64,000 bases of DNA from Eledone cirrhosa (Eukaryota), in the NCBI GenBank assembly GCA_964016885.1, contig OZ024743.1:101618001-101682000 (forward strand), in the 5' to 3' direction. The notes beneath the pieces are model-generated. The model had not been told where the DNA came from and searched no databases. It saw only the letters and a program-made list of their open reading frames with translations. Both the position numbers and the translations under genes were made by a program. Positions 13,250 to 57,914 of the stretch are shown here, one piece after another (the first letter of the stretch is position 1; the number at the start of each line of letters is the position of its first letter).

Positions 13250-16200
13250 TGCTTTAGCCGGTCCCAAGCCCGGTTGAGAAAGGAGGAGGGTTGGAGCGTA
13301 AAAACATTTCACCGCTACAGAAACGACGAGAAAAAACCATTTTGATACCCAGCGGCGAAAAAGAAGACACGTCATCCCTGGTCAAAGCCGAAAGGAGGCC
13401 CGACCGCGGATAAGTCCTATCTTCAACGCCAGATCAAACACAAGAGTAGGCACCTGGAATGTCCGCACGCTCTTTCGGGACGGGCGGATGGAGCAGGTGC
13501 TGAAGGAGATGAGAGAATATCGCCTTGACATCATGGGCATCAACGAGACGAGGTGGACAGGACAGGGACGACTCGACAGTGGAGACATGACTATTCTCTA
13601 CTCTGTGGATGATGACAACCATGTCCACGGACTTGGTATCATCCTCACCGGAGATGTATCACGGGCTCTTGTGGGATGGAGGCTAGTGAGTGAACGAATT
13701 ATTACTGCCAGATTGAGCACAAGGTTAGCCAAGGTGACCGTAGTGCAAGTCTACGCCCCGACTGAAGCTGCCTCAGATGAAGATAAGGATACCTTCTTTA
13801 TCCAACTACAGGATGTCCTAGAGGAAACACCCAGGTCAGACAGTAGGCTGGTGATTGGTGACTTCAATGCCAAGCTAGATGGAGACAGGAGAGAAATGCA
13901 TTCAGCCATTGGCCCCCACGGTTCAGCTGATTCCACCAATAACAACGGGGAACGGTTGCTGTCCCTGAGCAGTATCAGCAACCTCTCCATCGGGAATACA
14001 TTCTTCACCCATGGGCAGATTCACAAGATGACATGGACTTCCCCTGATGGCAATACCAGGACCAGGAATGAGATTGATTATATCTGCATTGGCACGAGGT
14101 GGCGTTCCTCTCTCTTGGATGTTCGCACCTACCGAGGGGCAGACGTCGGATCTGATCATCATCTTGTGGTTGGAAAAATCCGCTTGCAGAAGAACAAAGC
14201 AAATAAGACCGTGACGCCATATGCTGTCGCAAGCCTGCAAGACCAAAGCACGTCAAAGGGATTCTACCTGGAGATCAGGAATAAGTTCCAAGAACTACAG
14301 CACGCACAGAACCGTGAAGACCAGTGGCAGATGTTTGCTCAGGCAGTCAGGGCTCGTGCTGATGTAGTTATTGGTAGAAGAAGGGAGACCAACCGGGAAC
14401 AGTGGATCAGCAGTACTTCATGGAATCTCTTTGACGAGAGGAAGGATGTTAAGAACAAAAAAGATCAAACCAAAACTCGACAGCAATGGCAGGAAGTGGA
14501 CAGAGAGTACAGACGTCTTGACAAGGAAGTAAAGAAGAGCTGTCGAAAAGACAAGCGCCAGTGGTTAGAAGATCGGGCTGCAGAGGCACAGGTGGCAGCA
14601 GATCGAAATGATTCCAAGACGCTGTACCGGATCGTCAGAGAGCTAACTGGAGGACGAAGTGGAAGCAGTTTGCCAATCAAGAGGAAAGATGGTCGGATGC
14701 TTGCAGCCAGTGAAGAGCAGGCCCAGAGGTGGAACGAACACTTTCGTGAGGTCCTCAGTCAGCCATCTCCCAACACAGTCTTCGAGCTTGACTGGGAGGA
14801 AGCGAGCTACCGGCTGGATGTACGACTTGACGACATCACAAGAGCTGAGGTGGCCAAGGCCATCCGCTGCCAAAAGAATAACAAAGCGGCAGGGCTGGAT
14901 GAGATTCCTACAGAGCTTCTGAAGCACGGTAAGGATGTAATAGAGGAGCAGCTCACCCATTTATGCAATGTGATTTAGCAAGAATAGGAGGTGCCGGAGG
15001 ACTGGGGAAATGGAGTGATTGTACCACTACCAAAGAAGGGTTGTCTCAGCGACTGCAACAACTGGAGAGGGATCACGTTGCTATCAGTGCCAGGGAAGGT
15101 ATTCTGCACAGTCATCCTGAACCGGCTGAGAGCAGAAGTAGATCGTCATCTTCGAGACGAACAGGCTGGCTTGCGCAGTGGAAGGTCTTGTTCAGAGCAG
15201 ATCTTCACTCTCCGAAATATCATTGAACAATGTCGGGATTTCCACAAGTCCCTTGTTGTCAACTACATTGACTTCAGGAAATCTTTCGACAGTGTTCATC
15301 GGGAGTCATTGTGGAAGATTGTAAGACTCTACGGTGTCCCAGAGAAATATATTAACATCTTCAGGTCGCTGTACCGACATTCCAGGTGCTGCGTTAGGAC
15401 AAATGACGGAAACACGGAAATGTTTGACATCTTGCCGGGTGTTCGACAAGGCTGCATCCTTTCGCCTTTCCTTTTCCTCATTGTCATCGATTTCATCACG
15501 AAGAAGACAATGAGTGACCCTCGTTTTGGCATCAGTTGGGATGGAAGGAGATTAAGCGACCTGGACTTTGCCGATGACATCGCAGTGATAGGCCATTGCC
15601 GAGAGGACCTGCAAGAGATGATAAACGTTCTAAATGACAATGTACAGAAAGTTGGCCTGCGCATCAGTTGTGAAAAAACCAAGACCATGTCGACAGATGA
15701 CCCTCCAAATCGTCCCATCATGGTTGGTCAGCGTAACATTGAATGTGTAAACCACTTCCAATACCTTGGCAGCAACATCTCTGACGATGGGGATGCTGAG
15801 GTGGATGTGCGCACAAGGCTGGGAAAAGCAGCGGCGGTGTTCCAGCAACTCCGTCTGATATGGTCCAGGTGTTCCATCGGCAACGCCGTCAAATTCCGTA
15901 TTTACATGTCCATTGTAGTACCAACAGCGATATATGCCTGTGAGACATGGAAGAGTACGGAAAGTGTATGTAACAAGCTTGATGTATTCCACCGTCGTTG
16001 CATTCGGACCATATTGAAAATTTCATGGAGAGACCAAGCTAGCAACGAGGAAATGATGAGGAGGTCAGGATTGGAGAGGTTAAGGGACACTGTCCGGAAA
16101 AGGAGACGGCGGTTCGCGTTCCACATCATTCGTTTGCCAGCGGATCGACCTGCTCATATTACCATGGATTGGGTACCAGAAGGTGGCAGGAGAGAACGGG

Positions 16201-16360
16201 GAAGACCACGAAAAACATGGCGGAGCACATTCAGGGGGGCCCTGCAGGAGATGGGAATTACCTGGAGAGGTGCTAGAAGGGCCGCCAGTGACAGGATCAA
16301 GTGGAGGAAGCTCGTCGCCCAATGTTCCACAAGGGACTGGAGGAACTAAGACTAAGACTA

Positions 16361-35913: not shown

Positions 35914-36130
35914 GGGATGGACACACGCGTATAACTTGCTGAGTAAGTTCTGTTTAAATTTCTATAGAAATTCTTGTCTGATAACTTTAATTTTTGTACC
36001 ATTTTGTAGAGGGACTGCCAGGTCAAACTTTGATCTGGTCAGTCTCTCAAAATATTCTACGCATTTAGGCGAAATAGTTAAACAAAAAAAAAAAAAAGTT
36101 TTTTCTTGTTGAAAAGTCAATATTTTTTAA

Positions 36131-37927
36131 ATGGCCGAAGCTTCTTCACCAAAATTCGAAGGAGGAAAGGGGAAGATGAACTTACAGCTTCCCCCTGCCA
36201 CTGTCACAGTAGCAGAGGTCAAGAAGAAAGGTCAGCCAGAGGAAGAATTCTCTCCACCTGTTAACCGACAACTTGACGTTGCCATGGCAACAACCCAAAG
36301 AACCAGCAGCAACAGCAACAACAACAACAATGCGACGGACGAAAACAACACCAATAACAATAACAATAACAACAACAACAACAAGACCAATAACGGTGAC
36401 AACAACAACAATGATAACAACAACACCACCAACGACAACAACAACACAAACAAACAAAATTTCTCCTTCGCCGAGACGACAAGGAAAACCCTCGACTATC
36501 TGCCAGTAGATATAACAAAAGCGAAGGAGCTACTGGCGGATGCGAAAAAATATATAGTGTACGGAGAAAATGGTTCATTCACAATCCATTCCCCCCCGGA
36601 ACTAAAAAGCCAGAGACTCCTAAACACGGTCATGTTTAGGACAATCTCGAACAAAAGTAAAAAACCAGCTCAACCATCACAGAGCGAGATAGAGCTGGTT
36701 TTAAAAGACGTCATGAAGGACATCACCTTCATTCAGAAGGATAGACTCTACGGGAGTCTATCCATTCTCATGAAGGACAGGGACACAGCAGTGAAACTGT
36801 CCATCAAACCAATCACATCCACCGCATACACCTTCTACCCTACGTACATGGGTAGAAGAACACAAAAAATAAAAATCCACACCATCCTGCCGATTATGGA
36901 CATATGGTGGGTTTTGACAGGTTTTCTGGACCTGGAGGATGACATGCTGGTGTCCATGGGAAAGGCATCGGGTGACGCGTTCAGTGGAACGAGCCTCGAA
37001 CTTGTAGTTCAAATGAGGCCTGAAAGGATCGCCCAGATCCCTGAACGCGTCATACTGGATGATCTAACCTTCATCAACATTACCGTTGAGGGTAGACGGC
37101 CCCCGTGTTACCTCTGCGGAACCAGAGATCACCTGAGGGCTGTCTGTCCCCAACTTAATAAGAAAACCCCAATCCTGCCTACACCACCAACAACTGCACA
37201 ACCAACACAATCACCACAACTACCACTACAAAAACAACCACCACAGCTCAAACCAAAACAAAACAATGTCCAACCCATCCCCTCCACTCAAAAAACAAAA
37301 ACAATTTCCAAAACACCCGTACCGCAAACACAACCCGAAAATATACCCCTCCCCTCCAACGCGGAAGATGACCCTAGTTCGTCGTCAGACGAGGAGGAGC
37401 ACTTCCACACAATCAAAAGAAAAAAAAGAAAACACACCTCAGACACACAAATGAAAAAAAACCCTCCCCAAAACATAACACTGACACCAACACAAAAGAG
37501 CTCACAACAACAGCAAACAAAAAACACCACACAAAAACAAAAACATGCATACACATACATAAATACAAGAAACAAAAAACTGTTAAACATTGTGTACAAC
37601 AACAATCTAATAAAAACACAAGGGCCTAACTTCACCCAGGCAGGGGATTTCCCCCACCTCAAAATGATTAAGGCCCCACAGGACACCTATAAAACTTTAA
37701 AAAACAATTTTAAAGAGGACGTGGGTCCCCCCTGCGTCGGGCCCATTAACCGCGTCCTCCTAAAAAACTATCCCACCCCCTCCCCAAACACCCACACAAC
37801 TCCAAGCTCCCCAACCACACAACACACTGATGCCCCCACACTTCCACAAACCACCACCCCACCCAACAACCCATCCCCCACCCTAATGGAAATTGTGCAG
37901 CCCGATACCCGGAACGCAGAGAGGTAA
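36131..37927 (+). CDS. Tx1 ORF1p (gag-like, CCHC zinc knuckle), intact 598 aa
   Basis: Asn-rich N-terminus, SFAE motif, CYLCGTRDHLRAVC knuckle, Pro/Thr linker, acidic patch plus KRKKRK, conserved C-terminal block. Confidence 0.9.
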   Translation: MAEASSPKFEGGKGKMNLQLPPATVTVAEVKKKGQPEEEFSPPVNRQLDVAMATTQRTSSNSNNNNNATDENNTNNNNNNNNNNKTNNGDNNNNDNNNTTNDNNNTNKQNFSFAETTRKTLDYLPVDITKAKELLADAKKYIVYGENGSFTIHSPPELKSQRLLNTVMFRTISNKSKKPAQPSQSEIELVLKDVMKDITFIQKDRLYGSLSILMKDRDTAVKLSIKPITSTAYTFYPTYMGRRTQKIKIHTILPIMDIWWVLTGFLDLEDDMLVSMGKASGDAFSGTSLELVVQMRPERIAQIPERVILDDLTFINITVEGRRPPCYLCGTRDHLRAVCPQLNKKTPILPTPPTTAQPTQSPQLPLQKQPPQLKPKQNNVQPIPSTQKTKTISKTPVPQTQPENIPLPSNAEDDPSSSSDEEEHFHTIKRKKRKHTSDTQMKKNPPQNITLTPTQKSSQQQQTKNTTQKQKHAYTYINTRNKKLLNIVYNNNLIKTQGPNFTQAGDFPHLKMIKAPQDTYKTLKNNFKEDVGPPCVGPINRVLLKNYPTPSPNTHTTPSSPTTQHTDAPTLPQTTTPPNNPSPTLMEIVQPDTRNAER

Positions 37928-37951
37928 GTGCCTTTTCTCTTCACCACCAAC

Positions 37952-40900
37952 ATGGCTATGCTAAGAGTAGGCTGTTTAAATGCGCATGGCCTGGGCTCAA
38001 CTTGGAAGCAAGCAATGCTTCTAAATGACCTCAGGTCACAACGTATAGATGTGATGGTTATTTGCGAGGCCCGGATCAGCAACGTGTGACAGCTGGCCCC
38101 CACCTTTGATGACTTTGAGATGCACGCATCTCTCTGTCAGCCCGGAGGTGGGGGTGGAGTTGTCGTTCTGCTGCAAAAACATCTGGGTCTCGCAACACAG
38201 ATGGTACATTTGGACCCGGAGGGTCGACTAGTGGTTCTGGACCTTGGCAGTGGTAAAGGCGGAGCGTTTAGGTTGGTAGCCGCCTACGGCCCTTTCGGGT
38301 CAATGCGGCCGGACTTCTTCCATCGTCTGGAGACTTTTCTGGGGACGTCCCGCTCCTTGCTATTAGTGGGGGACTGGAATGGTATCCTAGATGCACGCTG
38401 GGACTACGTAGGGGCCTGCCCCGATAGAGAGGGGTGTAATAGCCTCAAAGGGTTAATCGGTCGATTTGACCTGGCCGATAGATATCGACTAGATTTTCCG
38501 ACTGCGCCAACCTGGACTTGGGCAAATCGTAGCGGATCATCTAGGTCGTACCTAGATAGGTTCTTAGTTAGAATTAGGGATAAGGACTTTTTAAGTTGTC
38601 CAAAAATGCGCATGGTTGGCTATTCAGACCACAAATTAGTGACCTGCATGGTCAACCTTGACAGAACTCATAGACAGGGCCCCGGTTACTGGAAGCTCAA
38701 CTTGTCCTTGCCGGCAAGTAGAGCCTACAGGAATCGGATTAGTACGTTAGTTAAGGAACGGTTGACTGGAGCGATCGTCAACAGCAGGTGGTGGGTATCT
38801 CTAAAGAGAGAGATTAGAGTAGTCTCGATAGAATTTAGTAAGGTTTTAGCTGCGGATAGGAATAGGAAGGAAAGGGAGCTAATAGATAGAGTAGAAGAGG
38901 CAATTAGAAGCGGCGACGTGGCCAGAGTGCTAGCGTCGAGAACGGCTTTGAGCCAGTTTTTCGACGCGAAGCACGAAGGCTGCGTTGTCCGAAGTAAAAT
39001 ACGTGCTCTAGGGAACGAGGGGACCAAAGCTGTTAGCTGGGCCCGCGTGACAGAGGCCAACAGTGGAACTAAATCCACCATCCTGTCTTTGCGAGACCTG
39101 GATGGACGGGCGATTCTTGAGCCTAGGCAGATGTGTGAGGCCTTTCAAAGGCACTTTGCCCGACTGTTCGGGAGGGGCGGGGAGCCGGTTGGGAACGTGG
39201 ACTTCGGTCCATACCTGGACGGCCTGCCGCGCCTCTCGGACAGGGAGGCGAAGTCCTGCGAGGAGCCGATTTCGGCCGCTGAGATAGAGGACGTGCTGAG
39301 CCAATGCGGCAAACGCAAATCCCCGGGTCTCGATGGTCTTCCTTACGAATTATATCTAGCTATGCCGGACTTGTTCCCCGATCTCCTCGAGGCGGTCTAC
39401 TGCAACTGGCAACAGAACGGGAGAATTCCCTGTACTGTGACCAAGGGCGTAGTCACGCTAGTGAGGAAGGACGAGAACAAGGGGGACGAAATAAGTAACT
39501 TCAGGCCCATAACTCTGCTAAATACAGAGTTACAGATTTTGGCCAAGGTGCTAGCAAAGAGGTTGGCGCTTGTCGTGGGCAACCTGGTGGAAGATGCGCA
39601 GACATGCGCTATCCCGTCCAGGTCCATCCATGACAACCTCCACCTCGTGCGATACATCATAGACAGGGTTGGGAACGAACCCGGCTTTGGTGGGGCTCTG
39701 ATCAACTTGGATCAATCTAAGGCGTTCGATAGGGTCGACCATGGTTACCTGGATGCGGTGCTAGCGGCGGCAGGCTTCGGACCCATTTTCAGGGGCTGGA
39801 TCACTGCTATGCACAGCAGCCGCATCTGCTCTAGGGTCAAGGTGAACGGCTACCTCTCGGAGCCGTTCAAAATCGCACGGTCCATCCGACAAGGGTGCCC
39901 TCTCTCCTCCCTTCTGTATGTGTTGACTCTCGAGCCACTACTGCGGAAGTTGGAGTTGTTGCAGGGCATCCCTTTGGAACCGGGATTGCGGAAAGCGGTG
40001 TCGGCCTACGCCGATGACGTGACAGTAATGGTGTCGACGGCCTCCGAAATCGAGGCGGTCGGCACCTTACTGGAGGAGTACGAAAAGTTCACAGGGGCTA
40101 AGCTGAACCGGGACAAGTCGATCGGTTTGCAACTCGGCACGTGGAGGGTCAGACCGATGCCCTCCGATGGCGTCGCCGGACGCTGGACGGAGGGCCCGGT
40201 GAAGTTGCTCGGGGTCTGGTTCGGACCGGACCTCCAGGTGGAGAAAAACTGGGCGGAGGTTACGAACAGGGTGTTTGCACTGACCCAGAAGTGGGCCAGT
40301 TGCAAACTATCCCTGAAAGGTCGGGCGGAGGTGGCGAACACCTACATAGCGTCCGTCATCTACTACCGCCTGACCGTAGTGCCCTGCCCAAGGGAAACCC
40401 TCACCAAGATGGAGCGCGCGCTCTTCCAATTCCTTTGGAAGAGGCGGGCTCCTATGGTGAGGAGATCCATCTGCTGTCAACACCCTTCGAAAGGAGGGCT
40501 GGGGATGGCGTGGCTAATGATGCGTAAACACGCATTAAGGCTACGGCACCTCTACGTATTCCTCACCGGACAACCGGTGTGGGCCTCGTTTGTGAGACGA
40601 ACCTTTCCCAGACTCGTCTCACTCACCGAGCTGCAATCCTGGGTCAAGCAAAGACCGAGAAAACTGGGCGCCTGGCACACTGAGTGTGCCCAGGCGCTCA
40701 CCGCCCTCTGGCAGGCGGATCCGGTTATCAGTGGAGACTCCACCGCAACATTCTATAGAGAGCTGGTACGCAGCAGGTGCGACGACGCCCTCGGAGAAGC
40801 CCTAGACATGGAGGAGGACGAACTGGCCGGCCTGTTCGGTAGGACATTCAGCCCGGGACCTATGGACAACTTCCAGAAGTCCCTGGCCTGGCAGTGCTAC

Positions 40901-41389
40901 CGAGGAGCTTTACCCGTTCGAGAAATGCTCTACAGACACGGGCGCCCGGGTAGGGACCCCGCCAAAAAGATCTGTCCCAGATGCGTGTGCGACGAGGAAA
41001 CCGTTGCACACGCATTGGTACACTGCTCGGGCGTAGCCGATCTGTGGGGCTATGTCGAACAAGTGCTGTCAAGGGTGGGACCGATCCGGTTGACCACCGA
41101 GTCTATTGTAATGATCAAGCCGCCTCCCCCCTTCAAAGATGAAGCAGAGGCGGTGTTTCTGTGCGTAATAGCCATGGCGAAAGAGGTTGTATGGTGGACG
41201 CGTCTGAAAGGACTGAGGTCAGGCACCTTTCTCTCTGGCCAACAACTGGTCCGTTTCTTCCGATATCATTTCGGAAGAAGGATCAGGATGGAGAGAGAGG
41301 TGCTGCACCCCAGCCGTTTCTATGAAAGATGGGTGAAAGTGGCGAGAATGGCCCGTGTGAATGGGCCTTCACTCTACATCAGACTATAG
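37952..41389 (+). pseudogene. Tx1 ORF2p (APE endonuclease-RT-CCHC) with one premature TGA at 38087
   Basis: ATG 37952 is in frame with ORF 38120-41389; GDWN, YLDRF, SDHK, GPGYWKLN, KSPGLDG, FRPITLLN, KAFDRVDH, RQGCPLS, YADD and CPRC..H..C motifs. Confidence 0.92.
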
Positions 41390-41935
41390 GTGAGGAAGAT
41401 GAAAGACCAAGGGAGCACCCCTTCTCTGTGCTCCTGAGGAGAAGGGTTGCACACTTTTTTCGGGGGTGTGTGCGAACCCCCAAGGCGCCTCCTCTCTATT
41501 GAGGATTTTGTTATAAATTTTATTTTTTGTTATATTTTATAACAAAATCCTCTATTGAGGATTTTGTTATAATTCTATTTTTTGTTATATTTTATTTTAT
41601 TTTTATATATTGTTATTGCCTCCTCCCTATTGAGGACGCCTTGTTTTGTAAACTCCCCCCATTGTACTTGTCCCACTTTTGATGCCCTTGTGGCAAATAA
41701 AAGAAACATATCTATCTATCTATCTATCTATCTTGATAGAGTAAGACACGCTTCGCATCGGCTCCGCTATTCCATCGGGATTTACCCTTACTATTGTAAG
41801 TACCGGATAAATTTTTTAGTGCAACACATTTGGAACACTAACCCCTGTTATTTAGGGAAACATTTTTGCATTTACCCCCTTTTTAGGGGGTAAAATAAAT
41901 ATCTATTTTTGCCGAAAAATTTCTTTCTTGGCAGC

Positions 41936-43773
41936 ATGGCGGAAAAGATGGCAGACATGTCTGCCATTAGCTCTGCCACGCCCCCCAAGTCTGAAGAACA
42001 AAAAATAATTACAACAAAATTAGACATTGAAACAAACAAACAAAATGAAAAAACAAATGTTAAGGAAAATGAGCAAACAGAAAACAAACAAACAGAAAAT
42101 AATACAAATAACGACAGGGCAACTTTCGCCCAGAAAACAAAACAATCCATTACATACACACCAATTGACCTAACTGCCGCCAGAGAAAAACTGGCCGAAG
42201 CAAAGAAACACATTGTTTTGGGGGAGAACAGAATGTTTTCCATTAACTCCCCCCCCCAGAATTCAAGAAAGCCAGAGCAGAAAACACAGTTCTATACAGA
42301 ACTATACTGAACCAGACAAGAAAGCCAGCACAGCCCAGCCAAATGGAAATAGAGTTAGTCCTAAAAGACTATATGAAGAATATTCTCTTCATACGAAAGG
42401 ACCGACTCTATGGCAGCATTTCGGTCCTAACAAGAGACAAAGAAACGGCGGAGAAGCTTTCCCTAAGCCCACTCTCGTCGACAACATATAGCTTCTATCC
42501 CTCCTACATGGGTAGAAGAACACAGAGAGTAAAAGTAAAAACAATGCTGCCCACAATGGACTTCTGGTGGGCTATTGCTGGCTTCATTGATATGGGCGAA
42601 GACACTATGCTGTCAATGGGGAAGGCAACTGGAGATGCGTTCCTGGGAATGGGCCTCGACATACTAGTCCAAATGAGGCCCGAAAGAATAGCACAAATCC
42701 CGGATCGCATCTGGCTGGATGACCTTACCCCAATAGACATAATTGTAGAGGGGAGAAGACCAGCATGCTATTTATGCATGGAAAGGGGACACGTTAAGGC
42801 TAACTGCCCGAAACGTATCCCCCAAAAAGGACTATTGCCCACACCCACCACAAACAGTACACCAGCACCACCCACCTCCAAAAATACACTAATACCACAC
42901 ACAGCAAACAAAATACAGACACCACCAACCACAAACACAACACAAACATCACCACCACCAGCACCAAACACAAGCACGACACAAAAATCACCACCACCAA
43001 CCACAACACAAACATCACCACCACCATCACCAACCACAAGCACGACACAAACATTACCACCACCACCACCACAAAACCCATTCCAAACAAATAATAAAAA
43101 AAACAGTAACAAATCTACCCCTCCCGCAAAAAAAAAACAACCACACAACACGTCCCTCCCACCTAGCGCTGAAGAATTTCCCCCAACTTCTGAAGAAGAA
43201 GGAGGAGAAGCCTTCAGACAAGTTAAAAGAAAAAAAAGAAAACACACACCCAGCACACCACAAATAACCCACACACAAACACCAACTCCAATCAAAAACA
43301 CCCCACCCTCAACAAACAAAAATAAATCTGCGCCTCCCCTCTCCGAAACATTGACAGCATCACAAAAAAAGACGTTGCAATACACATATATAAATAAAGA
43401 AAACAAAAAACTGGTTAAATTAATAAACAATAACCCTATGGTGCAGACCGAAGGGCCAAACTTTATCTCAACAGAGAACTTCACCCATTTAAAAATGATA
43501 AAGGTCCCTCTGGACCTTTATCGTTCCTTAAAAGAACAATTTAGACGGGACGTGAGCCCCCCCTGTTTAAAACCGTTGAATCGCGTCCTCTTGAAAGATT
43601 TCCCCATAACCGCCCCTCTCCCTGACACAACTCCAAATACCCCAACCCCACCACACACGTGTACCCCCACACCACCACAAAACATCCCTCCACCCAACAC
43701 ACCTGATGCCATGGAAATTACGCAACCCGGAGAGGTAAGTGCTTTTCTTTCTTCACTTTCAACACCAAAATAG
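41936..43773 (+). pseudogene. Element 2 ORF1, frameshifted at a C9 run (42249-42257)
   Basis: MAEKMADM start; CYLCMERGHVKANC knuckle; aligns with element 1 ORF1 across the homopolymer. Confidence 0.85.
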
Positions 43774-46700
43774 ATCAATTGAGAGTTGGCTGTTTGAACG
43801 CGCGTGGCCTGGGCTCAGCTTGGAAGCAAGCAAAGCTTCTAAGTGACCTCAGGTCACAAAGTATAGATGTGATGGTTGTTTGCGAGAGTCGGATCAGCAG
43901 CGTGAGACAGCTGGCGCCCGCCTTCGATGACTTTGAGATGCACGCATCTCTCTGTCAACCCGGAGGCGGGGGGGGGGGGGAGTTGCCGTACTGCTGGATA
44001 AACGTCTGACTCTCGACGTACAGATTGTTCACTCGGACCCGGGGGGTCGATTACTGGTGCTGGACGTCGGAGGCGGTGAAGGCGGGGCTTTCAGACTGGT
44101 CGGTCTTTATGCTCCCTTCGGGGCGGAAAGAGCCGACTTCTTCCAACGTCTGGAGACTTTTCTAGGAACGTCGCGTTCCCTGCTTTTAGTGGGGGACTGG
44201 AATGGAATCCTAGATGCGCGTTGGGACTATGCAGGGGCATGTCCCGATAGAGGGGGGTGTAGCAGCCTCAAGGGGTTACTCGATCGATTCGACCTGGTCG
44301 ATAGATTTCGACTAGATTGTCCAACTGCGCCAACCTGGACCTGGGCAAACCGCAGTGGACAATCTAGATCGTACCTAGATAGGTTTTTGGTTAGGAGTAA
44401 GGATAGGGACGTATTTAGTTGTCCAGAACTGATCATGGTTGGCTATTCAGATCACAAATTAGTGACCTGCGTGGTCAACCTTGATAGAACGCATAGACAG
44501 GGTCCCGGTTACTGGAAGATGAACTTGTCCTTACCGACAAAGAAAGATTACAGAAACCGGATTAGTAGCTTAGTTAAGATGCGGTTGACGGGAGCAATCG
44601 TCAACAGTAGGTGGTGGATATCTCTAAAGAGAGAGATTAGAGTAAGTTCGATAGGTTACAGTAAGGAACTAGCGGCGAATAGAAATAGGAGGGAAAGGGA
44701 GTTAACAGATAAACTAGAAGAGGCGATTAGGAGCGGAGACGTAGCCAGAGTGTTAGCGACGAGAACGGCATTGAGCCAGTTCTTTGACGCGAAGCACGAA
44801 GGCTGCGTTGTCCGAAGTAAAATACGTGCTTTAGGAAACGAGGGGACCAAAGCTGTTAGCTGGGCCCGCGTGACAGAAGCCAAGAGTGGGATTAAATCCA
44901 CCATTCGGTCTTTGCGAGACCAGGATGGACGGGTGATCCTTGAACCTGAGCGAATGTGCGAGACCTTTCAAAGGCACTTTGCTCGACTGTTCGGAGGTGG
45001 CGGGGGGCCGGACGGGGATGTGGACTTCGGTCCATACCTCGACGGTCTACCGCGTCTTTCGAGCGGCGAAGCGGAGTGCTGCGAAAGGCCAATCACAGCC
45101 ACTGAAATCGGGGAAGCGCTCAGCCAATGCAGCAGACGCAAATCCCCGGGTCTCGATGGTCTACCATACGAACTTTATTTAGCTATGCCGGTCTTGTTCT
45201 CCGAACTCCTCGAGGCTGTCTATTGCAACTGGCAACAGAACGGGAGAATTCCCTGTTCTGTGACCAAGGGCGTGGTCACGCTAGTGAGGAAGGACGAGAG
45301 CAAGGGGGACGACTTAAGTAACTTTAGGCCCATAACTCTGCTGAATGCAGAGTTACAGATTTTGGCCAAGGTGTTGGCGAAGAGGTTGGCGCTTGTGGTG
45401 GGTGGTTTGGTGGGAGACGCGCAGACATGCGCTATCCCGTCCAGGTCCATTCACGACAACCTCCACCTCATGCGATACATCATAGAGAGGGTTGGCTACG
45501 AACCCGGCTTTGGTGGGGCCCTGATCAACTTGGATCAATCTAAGGCGTTCGATAGGGTCGACCATGGTTACCTGGATGCGGTGCTAGCGGCGGCGGGCTT
45601 CGGACCCGTTTTCAGGGGCTGGATTTCTGTCATGCACAGTGGCAACATCTACTCTAGGATTAAAGTAAACGGCTACCTCTCGGAGCCGTTTCAAATCACC
45701 CGATCCATCAGACAGGGGTGCCCCCTCTCCTCCCTTCTGTACGTATTGACTCTCGAGCCACTGCTGCGGAAGTTGGAGTTGCTGCGGGGCATACCCCTGG
45801 AACCGGGATTGCACAAAGCGGTCTCGGCCTATGCCGACGACGTAACAGTAATGGTGGCGGACGCCTCGGAAATCGGGGCGATCGCCACCCTACTGGAGGA
45901 ATACGAAAGGCTGACGGGGGCTAAGCTGAACCAGGACAAGTCAGTCGGTTTGCAACTCGGAACGTGGAGGGGGAAAGCGATGCCGTTAGACGGTGTCGTC
46001 GGGCGGTGGACGGAGGGCCCGGTGAAGCTGCTCGGGGTCTGGTTCGGACCGGACCTCCAGGTGGAGAAGAATTGGGGCGAGGTGACGAGCAGGGTGTTTG
46101 CGCTGACCCAGAAGTGGGCCAAGTGCAAACTATCACTGAAAGGTCGGGCGGAGGTGACGAACGCTTACATAGCGTCCGTCATCTACTACCGCCTGACCGT
46201 CGTGCCTTGCCCCAAGGAAAAGCTCACCATCATGGAACGCATGCTCTTCCAGTTCCTCTGGAAGAAGCGGCCTCCCATGGTGAGGAGATCCATCTGCTGC
46301 CAGCACCCTTCGAAAGGAGGGCTGGGTATGCCGTGGCTGTTGATGCGTAGGCACGCATTGAGGCTACGGCATCTACAGGTATTCCTCAACGGTCAGCCGG
46401 TGTGGGCCCCGTTTGTGAGGCGAGCCTTCCCACAGCTCGTCTCGCTCACCGAACTGCAATCCTGGGTGAAGCAAAGACCGAGAAAACTGGGCAACTGGCA
46501 CACCGAGTGTGCCCAGGCGCTCACGGCTATCTGGCAAGCGGACCCGACTGTCAGTGGAGAATCCACCTCGACATTCTATAGAGGGTTGGTGGCTAGCAGG
46601 GGCGACGACACCCTTGGAGAGTCGCTAGGCATGGAGGAGGACGAACTGGCCAGCCTGTTCGGTAGAACTTTCGGCCCGGGACCCATGGACAACTTCCAGA

Positions 46701-47212
46701 GGTCCCTAGCCTGGCAGTGTTACCGGGGGGCTCTGCCCGTTCGAGAAAAGCTCTACAGACACGGGCGCCCGGGCAGGGATCCCGCGAAAAAGATCTGTCC
46801 CAGATGCGTGCGCGACGAGGAAACCGTTGCGCATGCACTGGTACACTGCCCGGGCGTTGCCGATCTGTGGGGCTACGTCGAACGACTGCTGTCGCGTGTG
46901 GCGCCGATTCGATTAACCGCCGAGTCTGTGGTGAACATCAAGCCGCCTCCTCCCTTCAGAAATGAAGCAGAGGCGGTCTTTCTGTGCGTAATAGCCATGA
47001 TGAAAGAGGTTGTGTGGTGGACGCGCCTGAAAGGTCTGAGGTCGGGTGACTTTCTCTCCGGCCATCACCTGGTTTACTTCTTCCGATACCACTTCGGAAG
47101 AAGAATCAGGATGGAGAGAGAAGTGCTTGGTCCCAGACAGTTTTATGAAAGGTGGGTGAAAGAAGCGAGAATGGCCCGTGTAAATGGGCCTTCTCTCTAC
47201 ATTGTTCTGTAG
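43770..47212 (+). pseudogene. Element 2 ORF2 (ATG>ATA start, frameshift at G13 run 43968-43980), otherwise intact APE-RT-CCHC
   Basis: ORFs 43779-44009 and 44057-47212 align continuously with element 1 ORF2; YADD intact. Confidence 0.9.
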
Positions 47213-47480
47213 GTGAAGAAGTGAAGAGGAAAGGGGGAGCGCCTCCTCTCTGGGCTTCCCCCGCGAAAAGAGTTGCACACTTTTCGGGGGTATGTGCAAT
47301 CCCCAACACGCCCCCTCCCTTTTGAGGACTTTTTATTGTTATATTATTATTGTTATTCCTTTTTTCTTTACTCGATTTATGTAAACTCCCCCACTGTGTA
47401 AATGTCCCCTTCTTTTGTGCCCTCGTGGCAAATAAATAGAAATTTATCTATCTATCTATCTATCTATCTATTTATCTATA

Positions 47481-47946: not shown

Positions 47947-47963
47947 ATATCTATCTATCTATC

Positions 47964-50900
47964 AGACGTGTGTAACTTCGCGGAGAATTTTCTGTTATTT
48001 TATGTAAGAAAAAAACGTGAGTTTTTAGTTAAATTTTAAATTATTGTGTAACCTGACACCCCGTCTGGACCTTCAGGTGGTGGGTTAACTCATTTTCGCC
48101 CCTACAGGGGCGAAATATCCGTTTGAAAAATATTTTCTCCATCGAATCTTGGAAAAAAGATTGTAAAAGTTTGATTAAAAAGATTGTAAAAGTTTGAACG
48201 CTGCGTTCAACGATAATGGTGGTGGAGAGGCGGTAAGACTACAAAGCTCACAGTCAACATCGTCTTCTTCACTAGATACTATAGAGATGGAAAGACGAAA
48301 TGAAAATGCAAAAACAAATTCATATCCAAACAACACAAATGACACCAAACAGTTCAATGACAACAAAAATAACAGCAACACCAATAATGATGATAAAAAC
48401 AACAATGATAACAACAACAAAGAAAAAAATAAAGACAACACCAATAACACCAGCATCAAAGATAACAACAACACCAAGGAAAATACGAATAATATCAACA
48501 TCGGTGACAACAAGAATAACAACAACAATAACAACAATAATGACAACACCACCAACACGGATAATTCCACAGAGAAACCAAAAATCTCCTTTGCAGAGAA
48601 AGTTCAAAAAAAGGAGGAACTGATATATCTCGACATAACAAATGCTGAACAACTTTTAAAGGACGCTAGGAGATATGTCACTTTCGAAAAAAATGGTGCT
48701 TTCAGCATCAATTCTCCAGTAGAAATTCGCAAGGAAACTGCTCTCAAAACGATAGTTTTAAGGACGGTTTCCAATTCTACCCGAAAACCAGGCCAATTGT
48801 CACAGGAATAAATTGAACTGGTTTTCAAAAATTCAATGAATGATATTGCATTCATTCAAAGAAGCAAACTTTTTGGGAGTATTTCGGTACTCATGAAGGA
48901 TCAATTGACGGCCCCAAATCACTCTGTATCGCCAATTGTATCCAACCTGTACACCTTTTTCCCTACATACATGGGAAAAAGGACACTAAAGATCAAAATC
49001 ACGAGTGTCACACCAAAGGTGAAAATATCGTGGATACTGTGCGGCTTCATCAATTTTGATGAAGACAGAATACTGTCAGTAGGAAAGTCCCCCAGAGATG
49101 TATTCAATGGGACTAGCATTGAAGTTCTGGTGCAAATGAGCCCAGAGCGAATAGCTATGATCCCACAACGTGTACTCCTGGACGGACTCACCTACATAAA
49201 CTTTTCGGTTGAGGGTAGGCAGCCTTCATGTTACCATTGCTTTAGCAGGGGTCACCTGAGGGCTTCCTGTCCTAAATTAATGAATAAAAAAAGGCTCTTC
49301 TGCCGACACCCATCAAAACAACACAACCACCAACACCATCACAACAACAACAACACCAACACACAAAAATAGCCACAACAAACACAATCCCACCCAACCC
49401 CACTCCACCTAAAACCACTGCAAAATCACATACAGACACAACAGCTCCCCAAGACATACTCCTCCCCAATCACACAGACGATTCAACAGATGAGGCTATC
49501 TCGCCATCACCCAGTGAAGACGAGGGAGAACCCCATCGCTTGAAAAGAAAGAAAAGACATCACAAAAACAAAAAACCAGCAAACACTACCACAAACATAC
49601 AACCACCAACACAAACAACAAAAACATCACAAACAAAACCCCCACCTCCTGAAAACAAAATACCTACAACAAAACGAAAGCACACACAAGAACTACAGAC
49701 AAAAACATACACAACACAAGAAAATTACACTTACACTTACATAAACACTGAAAACAAAACACTAATGGAGACCATCACGAACGACCCTTCGGTGAAAACC
49801 GAAGGGAAAACTTTCGCCCACTCTATTAAAAATAGCAAAGAACTGAACCTAAAACTGACGAGGGTCCCTATACAAACTTATAGGTCCCTAAAAGAAACAT
49901 TTGAGAAGGATGTGGGGAATTGCTGCGTGAAACCACTCAACCGCGTCCTTCTCAAATGTCTCCCCACCCCCAGACACCCCCAGACACCCCCATCCCACCA
50001 GACCCCACCCCACCAAACATCTCCGTCTCCACCCCGCCGGAAACCACCACCCATCCAGACAACCCCCCCAACACCCCCATGGAAATCGTGCGGCCTGGTC
50101 CCCAGGAGACGAAGGGTGAGTGATCTCTTTTCTTCTTTTAACTTTTCAGCACCAACATGGCCAATATAAGAGTTGGAACTGTGAACGTACGCGGCCTGGG
50201 GATGCCCTGGAAACAGGGCAAACTCTTAAACGACCTCAGGTCGCACAGTATGGATGTGGTAGCCATTTGGGAGTCCAGGATCCACAGCGAGCGACAGCTG
50301 GCCCCCCATCTTCGATGACTTTGAGATCTACGCATCTATCTGTCAACCGGGGGTGGGGGCGGAGTTGCCGTTTTGTCGCGGAAACACCTGGGCCTCGTAA
50401 CACAGACGGTACTTCTGGACCCGGAGGGTCGACTGGTGGTCCTAGACGTTGACGGTAGTGAAGGTGGAGCCTTCAGGCTGGTGGCTGCATATGCCCCATC
50501 CGGGACACCACGGTCAGACTTCTTCAAACGTCTAGAGACGTTTCTGGGAACGTCCCGCTCCTTGCTTTTAGTGTGGGACTGGAATGGAATCCTAGATGCA
50601 CTTTGGGACTATGTGGGAGCATGTCCCGATAAAGAGGGGTGTAACAGCCTCAAACAGTTAATCGACCGATTTGACCTGGCCGATAGATATCGACTAGATT
50701 TTCCGACTGTGCCACTGTGAACGTGGAATAATCGTAGCGGAACATCTAGATCGTACCTAGATAGGGTTCTAGTTAGAAATAAGGATAGGGACATGTTAAG
50801 CTGTCCACAAATGTTCATGGTTGCCTATTCAGATCACAAACTAGTGACCTGCATGGGCAACCTTGATAGAACCCATAGACAAGGACCCGGCTACTGGAAG

Positions 50901-53833
50901 CTGAACTTGTCGTTACCGACAAGCAAAGCCTACAGTAGACGGATTAGCACTTTAGTTAAACAACACTTGACAGGGGCCATTGTCAACAACAGATGGTGGT
51001 ACCCTCTCAAGAGGGCAGTTAGATTAGACTCGCTAGTTTTTAGTAAAGAATTAGCGTTAGATAGAAATAGAACCAAGAAGGAACTGGTATATAAAGTAGA
51101 AGAGGAAATTAGAAGTGGCGACGTAGCCAGCGTGCTAGCAACGAGAACGGCCTTGGACCAGTTCTTCGACGCAAAGCACGAGGGCTGCGTTGTCAGAAGC
51201 AAAATACGTGCTCTGGGAAACGAGGGAGCCAAAGCTGTTAGCTGGGCCCGAGTGACGGAGGCAAAAAGTGGCAACAAGTCCACGATTCGGTCTTTGAAGG
51301 ACCAAAACGGACGCGTGATACGTGAGCCGAAGCAGATGTGTGCGGCCTTTCAGCGGCACTTTGCTCAACTGTTCGGGCGGGGCGCCGCGCCGGGAGGGGC
51401 TATGGATTTCGGTCCATACCTCGACGGCCTACCGCGACTCTCGGACAGCGTGGCAAAGTTCTGCGAAAAGCCGATTTCAGCCGCTGAGATAGGGGACGCG
51501 CTGAGCCAATGCGGCAAACGCAAATCTCCAGGTCTCGACGGTCTACCCTACGAATTTTACGTAGCAATGCCGGACTTATTCTCCGGTCTCCTGGAAGCCG
51601 TCTACTGCAACTGGCAACAGAACGGTAGAATTCCCAGTACTGTAAGCGGGGACGTGCTCACACTAGTCAGGAAGGACGAGAATAAGGGGGATGACATAGG
51701 CAACTTCCGGCCCATAACTCTGCTAAACACAGAGTTATAGATTTTGGCCAAGGTGTTGGCAAAGAGGCTGGCGTTTGTCGTCGAGAACCTGGTGGGAGAA
51801 GCGCCGACATGCGCAATCCCGACCAGGTTCATACACGACAACCTCCACCTCATGCGATACATCATAGAGAGGGTAGGGTGTAAACCCGGCTTCGGTGGGA
51901 CCCTGATCAACTTGGATCAGTCTAAGGCTTTCGATAGGGTTGACCATCGTTACCTGGATGCGGTGCTCGAGGCGGCAGGCTTCGGACCCGTGTTCAGGGG
52001 CTGGATTGCTGCAATGCACAACAGCAACATCTGCTCAAGGGTCAAGGTGAACGGCTACCTCTCGGAGCCGTTCCATATTACGCGATCCATTCGACAGGGA
52101 TGCACTCTCTCCTCCCTTATGTACGTACTGACTCTCGAGCCACTAGTGCGGAAGTTGTAGCTATTGCAGAGCATCCCTCTGGAACCGGGACTGCGGAAAG
52201 CGGCGTCGGCCTACGCCGACAACGTGACAGTAATGGTGTCGAGCGCCTCGCAAATCGAGGAGGTCGGCACCTTACTGAAGGAATACGAAAGTTTCACAGG
52301 AGCGAAGCTGAACCGGGACAAGTCCATCGGTTTGCAACTCGGATCGTGGAGAGGCAAACCGATGCCTTCCGATGGCGTCGTCGAACGCTGGACGGAAGGA
52401 CCGGTAAAGCTGCTCGGGGTCTGGTTTGGTCCGGACCTCCAGGTGGAGAAGAACTGGAACGAAGTGACGGCCAAGGTATTTCCCTCACCCAGAAGTGGGC
52501 CGAGTGCAAATTATCCTTGAAAGATCGAGCGGAGGTGAAGAACACTTTTATAGCGTCCGCCATCTACTACCGCTTGACCGTCGTGCCTTGTCCAGCCAAA
52601 ACGCTCTCCAAAATGGAGCGCGCGCTCTTCCAATTCCTTTGGAAGAGGCCGGCTCCTTTGGTGAGAAGATCCATCTGCTGCCAACACCCTTCTAACGGAG
52701 GGCTGGGGATGCCGTGGTTGACGATGCGCAAACACGCGCTCAGGCTGCGGCATCTCTACGTATTCCTCACCGGACAACCGGTTTGGGCCCCGTTCGTGAG
52801 GCGAGCCTTCCCACGACTCGTCTTGCTGACCGAGCTGCAGTCCTGGGTCAAGCAAAGACCGAGGAAAATGGGCGACTGGCACATCGAATGTGTTCAGGCG
52901 CTCACAGCCCTCTGGCAGGAGGACCCGGCGATCAGTGGAGACCCCCACTTCGTCATTCTATAGAGGGTTGATCCGCAGCAAGTGCGACGACGCGCTCGGT
53001 GAAACTCTAGGCGTAGAGGAAGATGAACTGGCCAGTCTGTTCGGTAGGACCTTCCGCCCGGGACCGATGGACAACTTCCAAAAGTCCCTGGCCTGGCAGT
53101 GCTACCGAGGAGCTCTACCAGTTCGAGACAAGCTCTACAGACATGGGCGCCCGGGCAGGGACCCTGCAAAAAAGATCTGTCCGAGGTGCGTGCGTAACGA
53201 AGAAACCGTCGCGCACGCATTCATACACTGCCCGGGCGTCACTGACCTGTGGGGCTATGTAGAACGACTATTGTCGCGGGTGGGACCAATCCGCTTGACC
53301 ACCGAGTCCATTGTCATGATCAAACCGCCACCCTCCTTCAAAAACGCAGGAGAGGCGGTTTTCCTTTGTGTGATAGCTATGGCGAAAGAGGTTGTATTTG
53401 TGGACAAGGTTGAAAGGGCTGAGGTCAGACACCTTTCTCTCCGGCCAACAACTGATTCTGTTTTTCAAATACCACTTTGGAAGAAGAATCAGGATGGAGA
53501 GAGAGGTGCTGTACCCCAGCAAGTTTTATGAAAGGTGGGTGAAAGTGGCGAGAATGGCCCGAGTGAATGGGCCTTCTCTCTATATCAGCCTGTAGGTTGA
53601 GGAAAAGGAGGAGGAGAGGAAAGGAGTACAAACTCTTCGTACTCCTGGAGATGAGGGTTTCACATTTTTTCGGAGGTATCTGTTACCCATATGAACTGTC
53701 TCCCCCTATTGGGGAAAATCGACTAATTTTTTAAATTGAATTTGTGATAACATTTTACATGTTTTTATTGTATGTAAACTTCTCCCTTTGTATTTGTCCC
53801 CTTCTTTTGGGCCCCTGTGGCTAATAAAGAAAC
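47964..53833 (+). mobile_element. Tx1-clade element 3 (full length, decayed)
   Basis: ORF1 fragments 48194-50123 (CYHCFSRGHLRASC); ORF2 fragments 50157-53595 with several stops and frameshifts and YADN; ends AATAAAGAAAC then (CTAT)n. Confidence 0.9.
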
Positions 53834-53850
53834 CTATCTATCTATCTATC

Positions 53851-56800
53851 GGACGTGCGGTAGATCGTCGGTAAGTTTTTGTAAAATTTTCTATACAAAA
53901 ACAGAATTTATTGTGTGAAAATTTATATTGTTTGATAGATTAACACCCAGGCTGAATTGTCAGCTGGGTGGCAATCTCAGTTTTCGCCCCACGGGGCCGG
54001 AAATTTTATTTGACAAATTTTCAAAAAATTTAATATTTTTGCTATTGATAATGGCTAACTTAGTAGAAGCAACGCTACTGAACGCTGACGAAGAAAGTAG
54101 AGAGAGAGAAATGCAGAGAGTAACGTTACCGCAACTTTTGTCTACGTAGGCGTCACCATGGAGACAAATAGTGACAACAAAGTTTTGTTTTGCCAAGAAG
54201 CCGAAAAATGCAACTTACAAGATGGACCACACAGCTTACAACAGACATCAAAAACCACAAAAAATGAAACAATAGACACAACTACAAACGGAAAAACCGA
54301 CAACCACAACAACAACAACAAAAAAAAAACTTATACAGAAACAGTCACAAATAATAATAACGTTACCTTTAACTCCGCATGTATTGGCGTCACCATGGAC
54401 ACCAATATGGACAACAAAACTAAAAACAAGATGGTACAACAGACAGAAAAAAACAACAGAAAATAAAACCATTGACACAACTACAAACGGAAAAACCCGA
54501 CAACCACAACAACAACAACAACAACACCAAAAAACTTTTGGGCAAACAGTCATCAAGACACAAGATTTCAAGGATCTCGATATCTCCAATGTGAAACAGA
54601 TGCTCTCAAAAGCAAAGGAGTTTATCACTTTCGGTGAAAACGGTGGATTTCAGATAAACTCACCCCCCAAAATTCGTCTGGAAACATTTCGAAGGACACT
54701 TACCTTCAGAACTGGTTCAAATGAATAAAAACGACCAGCATTCCTCAGTCAAGGGGAAATTGAGGCAAGCTTGAAGGAGATATTGCCAGACATTGACTTT
54801 ATGCAGAGGGCCAAACAGTACGGGAGTATTTCGGTACTCCTCAAAAGCGAGGCCCTTGCACAAAGATACTCAGTGACGCCAATACTGTCACAAAAATACA
54901 CCTTTTTCCCTACATACCTGGGAAAAAGGACACAAAAATTAGAGTTTCAAACATATCACCAAATATTAATATTTGGTGGATATTGACAGGATTTTTAGAG
55001 GAGAGAAAAGATACCATTCTCTCCATCAAAAAGTCAACCAGACACACCTGGTCTGGTACAAATTTGGAGATTCTTGTGCAAATGAGCCCGGAAAGAATCT
55101 CCAAAATACCAGAAAAAGTCCTGGTGGACAACAACAGCCACATAAACATTACGGTGGAGGGAGAAAACCACATTGCTTTCGTTGCAATAGCACCACTCAC
55201 CTATAGGCCTCCTGCCCTTTACAAACACACTCAACCAAAACAATACAAAAGATAACACTTTTACCAACACCGTCACCAAAACACCCACCACCACAACAAC
55301 AACAACTCACGAAAAAAGCAAACACACCAAAACAAACAGCCACTCAACCAACAAAAACAGAAAAAACACAGACAACACCCCTGAAGAACACAGCCCCACG
55401 CCATCCCACTCCATCAAACACTACCACAAACACACACACCGAAATACCATCATAACACAACATACCCCTACCCCACACTCCTGACGATGATTATTCATCG
55501 ACAGATGAGGCTGCTTCTCCTTCTTTAAGTGAAGAAGAATGAGAGCCTCGGAAATGTAAAAAGCAAAAAAAGAGACACTACAAAACCCCCAAAACTCCAA
55601 TCACCAACACCAACACACAACCACAGACACAAACAACAACACAAACAACACCACAGTCAAACATCCCCTACCAGCAAAACCAACACCAACACCACCCCAA
55701 ACAAAAGCACCCACCATAAAAAGAAAACTCCCGGACGAACAACAAACTAAAACAACACAACAGAAACACAAACAACAATACGCATACATCAACACAAACA
55801 ACAAGAGTTTGATGGAGGTTATCTCCCAAAACACCAAGGTGGAGACGGAGGGCAAAACTTTCGTCAAGGCAGAATCGTCTCCACACCTTAAACTTATAAG
55901 GGTTTCTATGGATTCTATAGTGACGTGAAAAATAAATTTTCGCAGGACGAGGAAAACCCCTGCCAGAAACCCATCAACCACGTCCTGTTAAAATGTTTCC
56001 CCACCCCACCCAACACCCCTCCAGCACCCAAATGGAGATTGAACAACAAGATCTCCAGGAAACGAAAAGGTAAGTGCACCTTTTGGTCGTTTTTCTCCAA
56101 CTCTTCTTCCCAAATATGGCTAGTTTACGAGTTGGAAGCGTGAATATACGTGGCCTAGGGATGCCCTGGAAACAGGGCCAACTTTTAAACGGCCTTAGGT
56201 CTCACGGTATGGATGTGATAGCCATCACCGAGTCCAGGATCCACAACAGGCAGCAACTAACCCCCATTTTCAATGACTTTGAGATCTACGCATCTCTCTG
56301 TCAGCCAGGAGGTGGAGCGGGAGTGGCTGTCATGTTTCGGAAGAACCTGGACGTCGAAGTACATCAAGTACACTTGGACCCGGAGGGTAGACTGGTAGGC
56401 CTAGACGTGAACAGTATTGTAGGTGGAGCCTTCAGACTGGTGGCCGTTTATGCCCCGACCGGGCAATCGCAATCACGGCCAGACTTCTTTAAGCGTCTAG
56501 AGTCTTTTCTGGGAACGTCTCGCTCCTTGCTTTTAGTGGGGGACTGGAATGGTATCCTAGATGCACGATGGGACTATGTGGGAGTATGTCCCAGTAGAGG
56601 GGTGCAACAGCCTCAAAACTTTAATCGGCCAATTCCACCTGGCCGATAGGTATCGACTGGATTTCCCAACTGCACCACAGTGGACGTGGGCAAACCGTAG
56701 CGGGACATCTAGATCGTATTTTGATAGGTTCTTCATTAGAGAAAGGGACAAGATGTTAAGCTGTCCACGAATGCACATGATAGAATACATAGACAGGGAC

Positions 56801-57810
56801 CCGGATACTGGAAGCTGAACGTGTCGTTACCGGCACGTAAAGCTTACAGTGAACGGATAAGTAGACTAGTCAAGCAACAGTTAACGGGAGCTATCGTCAA
56901 CAATAGATGGTGGTACTCTCTCAAGAAAGCAATTAGACTAGAATCGATAGGGTTTAGCAGAGAGTTAGCCTTAGAGAAAAACAGAATAGAAAGAGAACTA
57001 GTAGCCAAGGTAGGGGAGGCACTTAGAAGTGGCAACGCGGCTAGAGTGTTAGCGTCGAGAACGGCACTGGACCAGTTCTTCGATGCGAAACACGACGGCT
57101 GCAATCAGTGGAGAATCCACTTCGACATTCTATAGAGGGATTGTACGTTACAAGGGCGACAACGTGCTCGGAGAGACTCTGGGCGACGAAGACGATGAGC
57201 TCGGGACCTATGGACAACTTCCAGAGGTCCCTGGCCTGGCAGTGCTACCGAGGAGCTGTACAAGTTCGTGACAACATCTACACTGCCCGGGCGCAACCGA
57301 CCTGTGGAACTATGCAGAACAACTGTTGTCGCGTATGGGACAAATCCAGTTGACTGCCGAGTCCATAGTAAGGATCAAACCGCCAGCCTCTTTCAAAAAC
57401 GAAAGAGCGGCGGTTTTCCTCTGTACAGTGGCTATGGTGAAAGAGGTTATAGGGTGGACGAGATTGAGAGGACTGAGGACAGATGCCTTTCTCTCCGGAC
57501 ACAAATTGATTCCCTTCTTTAAGTATCACTTTAGAAGGAGATCAGAGTGGAGAGAGAGTCACTGCCCTCCAATAAATTTACTGAAAGGTGGGTGAATGTG
57601 GCAAAAATGGCTCGAGTGATTGGGCCTTCTCTGTTTATAAGCCTGTAGGTTAAAGAAGAGAGCAAAAGGAAGAAAGGAGCACTTGCACAACACGCTCCTG
57701 GAGTTGAGGGTTGTTCTATCGACGGGCTATTAAACAACCCATTTGTGGTGCTTTCCCCCTATTGGGGATTTCGATTGTTGTAATTGTTTGTTTTATATTT
57801 TTTACACGAC
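53851..57810 (+). mobile_element. Tx1-clade element 4 (heavily decayed, RT deleted, 3' terminus lost)
   Basis: ORF1 fragments ~54051-56073 (CFRCNSTTHL); ORF2 from ATG 56116 jumps from KHDGC to ISGES at ~57103; stop at 57646-57648. Confidence 0.88.
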
Positions 57811-57812
57811 TG

Positions 57813-57914
<102 letters not shown>

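Follow-up and report, generated by a model that had tools for sequence, protein, structure and literature searches.

A splice donor-like motif at the end of ORF1 is shared by a group of young non-LTR retrotransposons of Eledone cirrhosa, and its conservation points to a constraint acting on the nucleotides themselves. The 5' UTR of the elements additionally contains a short unit resembling an intron. According to the general view, LINEs express ORF1p and ORF2p from a single unspliced RNA, and introns are lost when they are copied. For the elements described here we propose, at a rough probability of 45%, that two RNA pools exist: a spliced one, which would provide ORF1p, and an unspliced one, which would provide ORF2p and serve as the sole copied template. 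A preliminary description of the same DNA had interpreted the complete ORF2 as an intron and as part of an RNA switch; its observations were confirmed, and comparison across lineages partly supports this interpretation.

Four LINEs Between TATC Repeats

The window, i.e., the whole stretch of 64,000 nucleotides analyzed (assembly GCA_964016885.1, contig OZ024743.1, positions 101,618,001 to 101,682,000), harbors four non-LTR retrotransposons arranged head-to-tail at positions 35915-57816 with (TATC)n between them; all features given in the following lie on the forward strand. Element 1 (E1, 35915..41708) is a full-length L1/Tx1-type LINE flanked by (TATC)n tracts. Its ORF1 (36131..37927) encodes 598 aa with a CCHC knuckle and has its stop codon inside the donor motif. 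A pyrimidine-rich inter-ORF spacer (37930..37951), unstructured in the consensus fold, leads to ORF2 (37952..41389), which encodes an APE endonuclease, RT and zf-RVT and is interrupted by a premature stop near 38087 in this copy. The 3' UTR (41390..41708) comprises a purine-rich start, predicted hairpins and an AATAAA at 41696. Element 2 (E2, 41735..47444) features an ORF2 beginning with ATA that overlaps the ORF1 stop, Element 3 (E3, 47963..53835) is a decayed copy of an abundant family, and Element 4 (E4, 53851..57816) carries an internal deletion in ORF2.

Pfam searches placed RVT_1 and Exo_endo_phos above the cut-off in ORF2 of E2, and zf-RVT above it in E3 and just below it in E1 and E2. 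The ORF2 product matched human L1 ORF2p with E 2e-47 and R2 proteins with E 8e-23 at best, and is thus nearer to the former. ORF1 of E1 gave no Pfam match; a CX2CX4HX4C zinc knuckle is present in its translation. A CCHC zinc knuckle in ORF1 is a feature of the Tx1 clade, and 5' truncation, a 3' poly(A) signal, a repeat tail and the lack of LTRs, all observed here, are features of non-LTR elements of the L1/Tx1 group. Assignment to the Tx1 clade is probable and is based on these features and on the RT motifs of ORF2, which we take to be Tx1-like. The sole named homologue found was from Argonauta hians (60% identity).

The preliminary description had also suggested GATA repeats as the target. 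Since 26 of 32 truncated 5' junctions directly abut TATC repeats, this targeting is real, and 26 of 34 3' ends run into the same repeats (in both counts, a few rows repeat overlapping loci). The families are young and comprise hundreds of copies, with E1 copies being about 99% identical; the exact 23-nt end of the E1 ORF1 is present at 866 places in the genome, and the E2/E3-type junction at 1,297 (mostly E2/E3). A sister family with (ATT)n tails, here F5, yielded 739 candidates at first look, which are 96-100% identical. Sister families (L126, L153-L177) end in (ATT)n and form separate tandem arrays, which brings the microsatellite targets of the clade to at least two. A period of 1,443 bases was seen in a tandem array of 5'-truncated E1-type units (L028-L030).

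Microsatellite-targeting LINEs of the Tx1 clade have been described before, namely Kibi, which targets (TC)n, and Koshi, which targets (TTC)n; as far as the available sections of that report go, they share with the elements studied here two ORFs, an ORF2 of the APE-RT type and insertion into microsatellites (PMC4494074). The targets differ, with (TATC)n in the present elements and (ATT)n tails in the sister families. L1-Tx1 families were also reported, in the accessible part of a repeat annotation, among the recently active repeats of an octopus (PMC13282606).

A Donor-Like Motif at the End of ORF1

Donor-like motifs are found at 37924..37929 (E1), 43735..43740 (E2), 50116..50121 (E3, GTGAGT) and 56070..56075 (E4), in phases 2, 0, 1, and 2, respectively, as counted from a conserved MEI motif. 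These donor positions, and the TAG/G ends of ORF2 (slash marking the proposed boundary) with the last base of the stop at 41389, 47212, 53595 and 57648, agree with the preliminary description. Related lineages were collected from within this genome, the most distant having about 68% nucleotide identity in ORF2. In an unanchored alignment, G/GTRRGT lined up in all 14 lineages; two further lineages, each represented by one decayed copy (L240 and L175), showed no clean donor match and were left out of this alignment. On the tree of these 14 lineages, columns -1, +1, +2, +5, and +6 did not change at all, columns +3 and +4 underwent only exchanges between A and G, and lineage-level changes remained inside GTRRGT, whereas neighboring columns mostly changed two to five times. 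For comparison, only 31 of 297 four-fold sites in ORF2 (about 10%) are invariant in the same lineages, from which the three free donor positions alone give P ~1e-3.

What the motif encodes depends on its phase: an Arg codon plus stop in phase 2, Gly-Lys/Glu-stop in phase 1, and residues inside ORF1 in phase 0. As the donor occurs in all three phases, no single coding reading explains it, and the alignment supports a nucleotide-level constraint on the donor-like motif that is independent of the reading frame. The earlier claim of a conserved donor thus turned out better supported than it was when made, given its presence in every aligned lineage and five unchanging columns against a four-fold invariance of about 10%.

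Outside this genome, the motif was absent in 14 of 16 distant metagenome LINEs. A HMMER search returned 101 distant ORF1 proteins, none of which was near enough to show a spliced tail, and two other searches for ORF1 homologues gave no homologue. Two of eight distant ORF1 proteins viewed end in QGK-stop and EGKS-stop; these ends, read as protein and not as codons, are what a phase-1 donor would encode.

The composition of the elements changes along their length (window 36000-57800): ORF1 is strongly A/C-rich, ORF2 has 50-56% GC, no strand skew and is nearly free of AATAAA, and the switch from one to the other falls at the donor. In the abundant E2 family, ORF2 starts with ATA instead of ATG in a good start context (window 43768-43773; among the E2-type copies listed), and the overlap of this codon with the ORF1 stop suggests that termination-reinitiation may proceed from a non-AUG codon.

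An Intron-Like Unit in the 5' UTR

In each element, GTRAGT was found at just two to three places, and all four have one of these at 20-61 nt from their 5' end. This one is followed by U-rich sequence and, 60-68 nt on, by TAG or CAG. The resulting intron-like units, which were not listed in the preliminary description and are new, span 35943..36009 in E1 (67 nt, from GTAAGT to a U-rich TAG, and retained in copies), 41796..41855 in E2 (60 nt, with a branch-point-like ACTAAC), 48017..48076 in E3 (60 nt) and 53871..53938 in E4 (68 nt). In 10 of 13 5' UTR types, a donor is followed 58-68 nt on by a U/C-rich acceptor, vs. 0.24 expected from shuffles, a comparison whose criteria were set after the four UTRs of the window had been viewed and in which at least two pairs of UTRs are related (81%). 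Many of the 13 5' UTRs are not alignable to one another. Among leader copies, GTAAGT and GTGAGT alternate at the donor and TAG and CAG at the acceptor.

Several leader acceptors lie inside predicted hairpin stems, and these stems, if formed, would be another reason for the acceptors to be kept. No copy without the unit was found for the E1-type leader (nine deviant places beside 907 intact leader acceptors) or for the E3-type leader (11 deviant places, of an uncounted total). We also observed that ORF2 lineages carry 5' UTR types in mixed combinations (L091, L093, L097, L232, L241), e.g., E3-like bodies with an E1-type leader, suggesting that leaders have been swapped.

The Candidate Acceptor at the ORF2 Stop

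In E1, the proposed intron would extend from 37924 to 41389, and the ORF2 stop with the candidate acceptor TAG/G lies at 41387..41390; the corresponding positions are 47210..47213 in E2, 53593..53596 in E3 and 57646..57649 in E4. The preliminary description had taken this TAG to be invariant. TAG/G is indeed kept by nearly all TATC-targeting lineages, while ORF2 of F5 ends in TAA in all 20 regions fetched, a finding which that description had itself named as speaking against its reading; the F5 donor is kept in 17 of 18 junctions. Across lineages, the base following the ORF2 stop can be G, A, T or C, with TAG/A, TAG/T, and TAG/C occurring in some lineages. Out of 101 conserved AG columns, those with a pyrimidine at -3 were ranked by their pyrimidine content; the AG at the ORF2 stop, present in 14 of 17 copies, came fourth, behind three AGs inside ORF2. 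These comparisons do not indicate that a 3' splice site at the end of ORF2 is conserved; of the proposed conservation beyond coding constraint, the donor part holds and the acceptor part does not.

A similar picture emerged for the stops that had been suggested to compensate for the different donor phases. Joining donor and candidate acceptor gives R-stop in E1, VKK-stop in E2, G-stop in E3 and a 28-aa tail in E4, as originally described. Among 16 lineages, eight have a stop no more than four codons from the join vs. 5.4 expected with shuffled phases (P=0.10), in a count made without lineages lacking TAG and without the two decayed copies, and with L238 and L174 set to phase 1 by homology though their single copies read phase 0, a choice which favors the hypothesis. 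In a sister subfamily of E1, the same donor is present, yet the join would add 42 aa. The "extra T" of E3, which had been thought to match its phase shift, already exists in phase-2 relatives and therefore does not track the shift. Acceptor and phase compensation are hence not more than chance. The E4 family had been expected to be phase 1, which was rejected as L110 and L221 read phase 2.

Further features surround the ORF2 stop. A 6-bp hairpin before it (window 41350-41367; 96% paired) recurs across lineages, as do hairpins in the 3' UTR. As a reason for the acceptor, the pre-stop hairpin was rejected, its covariation not being above that of shuffles (132/500). Many phase-2 lineages possess an AG in the second-last ORF2 codon (window 41380-41382), which would join ORF1 in-frame to the ORF2 stop. 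Lineages without it often have a stop directly after TAG/G, L232 and L093 being exceptions.

Search for Spliced Genomic Copies

The exact E1 splice junction had no match in the genome, compared to the 866 exact E1 ORF1 ends, and in all 30 sampled ends the sequence continues into the spacer. With a generic junction pattern, 34 matches were obtained (control 21), none of which derived from the ORF1 ends of these families. Places deviating from the donor at base +3 numbered eight in the E1 group, 45 in F5, 10 in E3 and one in E2, and none was spliced; acceptors followed by an exon with A at position +3 (in E3, A or G) escape this search, and the total for F5 is uncounted. Three F5 rows with foreign sequence past the donor were rejected, as they represent a short chance match, a deletion with 3-nt microhomology and without AG, and an inversion.

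The preliminary description had further considered the mobilization of a spliced ORF1-only RNA in trans, which would make it a non-autonomous element. Both UTRs and the tail would be preserved in such a transcript. No copy of this kind appeared in the junction or exclusion searches, i.e., no precisely spliced copy among 866 E1-type ends and 1,297 junctions, and mobilization of ORF1 in trans is accordingly not supported; we regard it as largely refuted for this genome and as hardly probable at all. The same result disfavors a splice that fuses ORF1 to ORF2. A spliced ORF1 mRNA as such would be compatible with the missing copies, as it would lack RT and so would not be copied in cis.

Two Proposed RNA Pools or a Possible Landing Site for U1

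The elements contain, in this order, a leader donor, an acceptor, ORF1, a donor, ORF2, a candidate acceptor and a 3' UTR with AATAAA, an arrangement which reads like a three-exon gene. If both motifs are used by the spliceosome, the spliced message would be devoid of the leader intron and of ORF2 and would provide ORF1p, whereas the unspliced RNA would make ORF2p and alone be copied; a preference for copying in cis could keep the spliced RNA from being reverse transcribed. The donor at the ORF1 end would then pair with an AG located at, or close to, the ORF2 stop, which is plausible in the TATC families and not available there in F5; the exon past this AG would carry the poly(A) signal. The model hence needs another acceptor in F5 and needs both introns to be removed together, because leader-only splicing of the bicistronic RNA should yield spliced copies. 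Coupled removal of the approximately 60-nt leader intron and the whole ORF2, with unspliced RNA reserved for ORF2 translation and retrotransposition and tissue-specific splicing possibly acting as an on/off switch, is a more tentative proposal, which we consider may well not hold in full.

Alternatively, the donors could be landing sites for U1 snRNP, which would enhance transcription and prevent early cleavage at the AATAAA motifs of the A-rich ORF1, allowing full-length RNA to form, without any excision of ORF2. This option, the main rival, which we consider somewhat unlikely, would account for F5, where the donor is conserved and the acceptor is not, and for the lack of spliced copies in the searches made. 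Consistently, the ORF1 region has one to five AATAAA and ORF2 none or one in all 13 copies, and suppression of premature termination by U1 at a conserved donor has been described for Arabidopsis EVD in the available part of that study (PMC5580714). A role of U1 alone would, however, leave the narrow donor-to-acceptor spacing of 58-68 nt in the leader unexplained; moreover, ORF2 offers nearly no poly(A) signals that the second site could protect downstream, and L232, one of the TATC-family copies checked, has no AATAAA in the 900 nt preceding the donor.

A signal for translation or transcription appears improbable. Here, the motif would be a stop-codon context that, together with the unstructured pyrimidine spacer, serves termination-reinitiation at ORF2, its likeness to a donor being coincidental. 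In phase-2 lineages, positions +2 to +4 are indeed the ORF1 stop, with all three stops occurring, and in phase-1 lineages the stop comes at +6; the ATA start of E2 overlapping the ORF1 stop likewise fits reinitiation, and the leader donor of human L1 is reportedly kept as a RUNX3 site, according to the portion of the source available (PMC5860796). Nevertheless, the motif is kept where the stop lies outside it (E2, E3, and the lineage F8), synonymous and non-coding positions are fixed on the splice consensus, and the leader units are unaccounted for. Very unlikely, finally, is a pairing of the donor with an AG in the first ORF2 codons, by which removal of a mini-intron of 41-59 nt would fuse ORF1 and ORF2. 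A pyrimidine tract does follow the donor, and the AG of an early Arg/Ser codon is in frame in phase-2 lineages; with RT encoded on it, the product would, however, be copied in cis, and the searches revealed no copy of that kind; moreover, the lengths vary and mostly fall below those of the leader units, with no in-frame AG seen for E2.

Returning to the proposed two RNA pools, such a strategy would be retrovirus- or copia-like and located in the L1/Tx1 group. We found no description of conserved splice signals in a Tx1-type LINE in the literature searched, which included few subscription papers and Repbase entries; the term "splic" is absent from the accessible text of a review on non-LTR protein biogenesis (PMC3894237) and of an octopus repeat annotation (PMC13282606). 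The closest parallels, taken from the accessible parts of the respective reports, come from LTR elements: BARE maintains distinct RNA pools including a spliced gag-only RNA (PMC3735527), and the conserved donor of EVD serves both the gag RNA and the suppression of early termination by U1 (PMC5580714). With these, the present elements share a donor that lies toward the end of the gene for an RNA-binding protein and is more strongly conserved than the acceptor, while the spliced RNA for this protein alone and the separate pools are a parallel only proposed here (PMC5580714; PMC3735527). In contrast, EVD and BARE have LTRs and one ORF, and the EVD intron is short and tied to early polyadenylation, whereas here an ORF2 of 3.5 kb would be the intron.

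For the leader unit, Penelope of D. virilis provides a precedent: in the excerpts available, its leader intron of 75 nt, located 46 nt from the start, is described as spliced in most transcripts and as retained in transposed copies (PMC2377424). The position near the 5' end, the short length and the retention in copies resemble the units reported here (PMC2377424); Penelope differs in having one ORF and a GIY-YIG endonuclease and in not being a LINE, and splicing was shown there and is only predicted here. Human L1, also of the L1 group, has a conserved donor and acceptor near its 5' end, and about 2% of its full-length copies are spliced (SpIREs), as given in the accessible text (PMC5860796). 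However, this splicing is described there as harmful, with the donor kept for RUNX3 binding (PMC5860796), and spliced copies make up about 2% there and were not found here, where a second donor lies at the ORF1 end. Introns of TART were, in the part of the report at hand, located in antisense transcripts (PMC1636488).

Should splice signals be under selection in these LINEs and be retained by all their copies, intron retention in transposition would not be confined to Penelope-like elements, and a testable route to an excess of ORF1p and to germline-restricted activity would be at hand.

Additional Features of the Window

Apart from the four elements, the window contains an unrelated endonuclease-RT LINE at 13302-16349, which is split over two frames, and a tandem repeat of 173 nt in 3.5 copies at 2469-3074.
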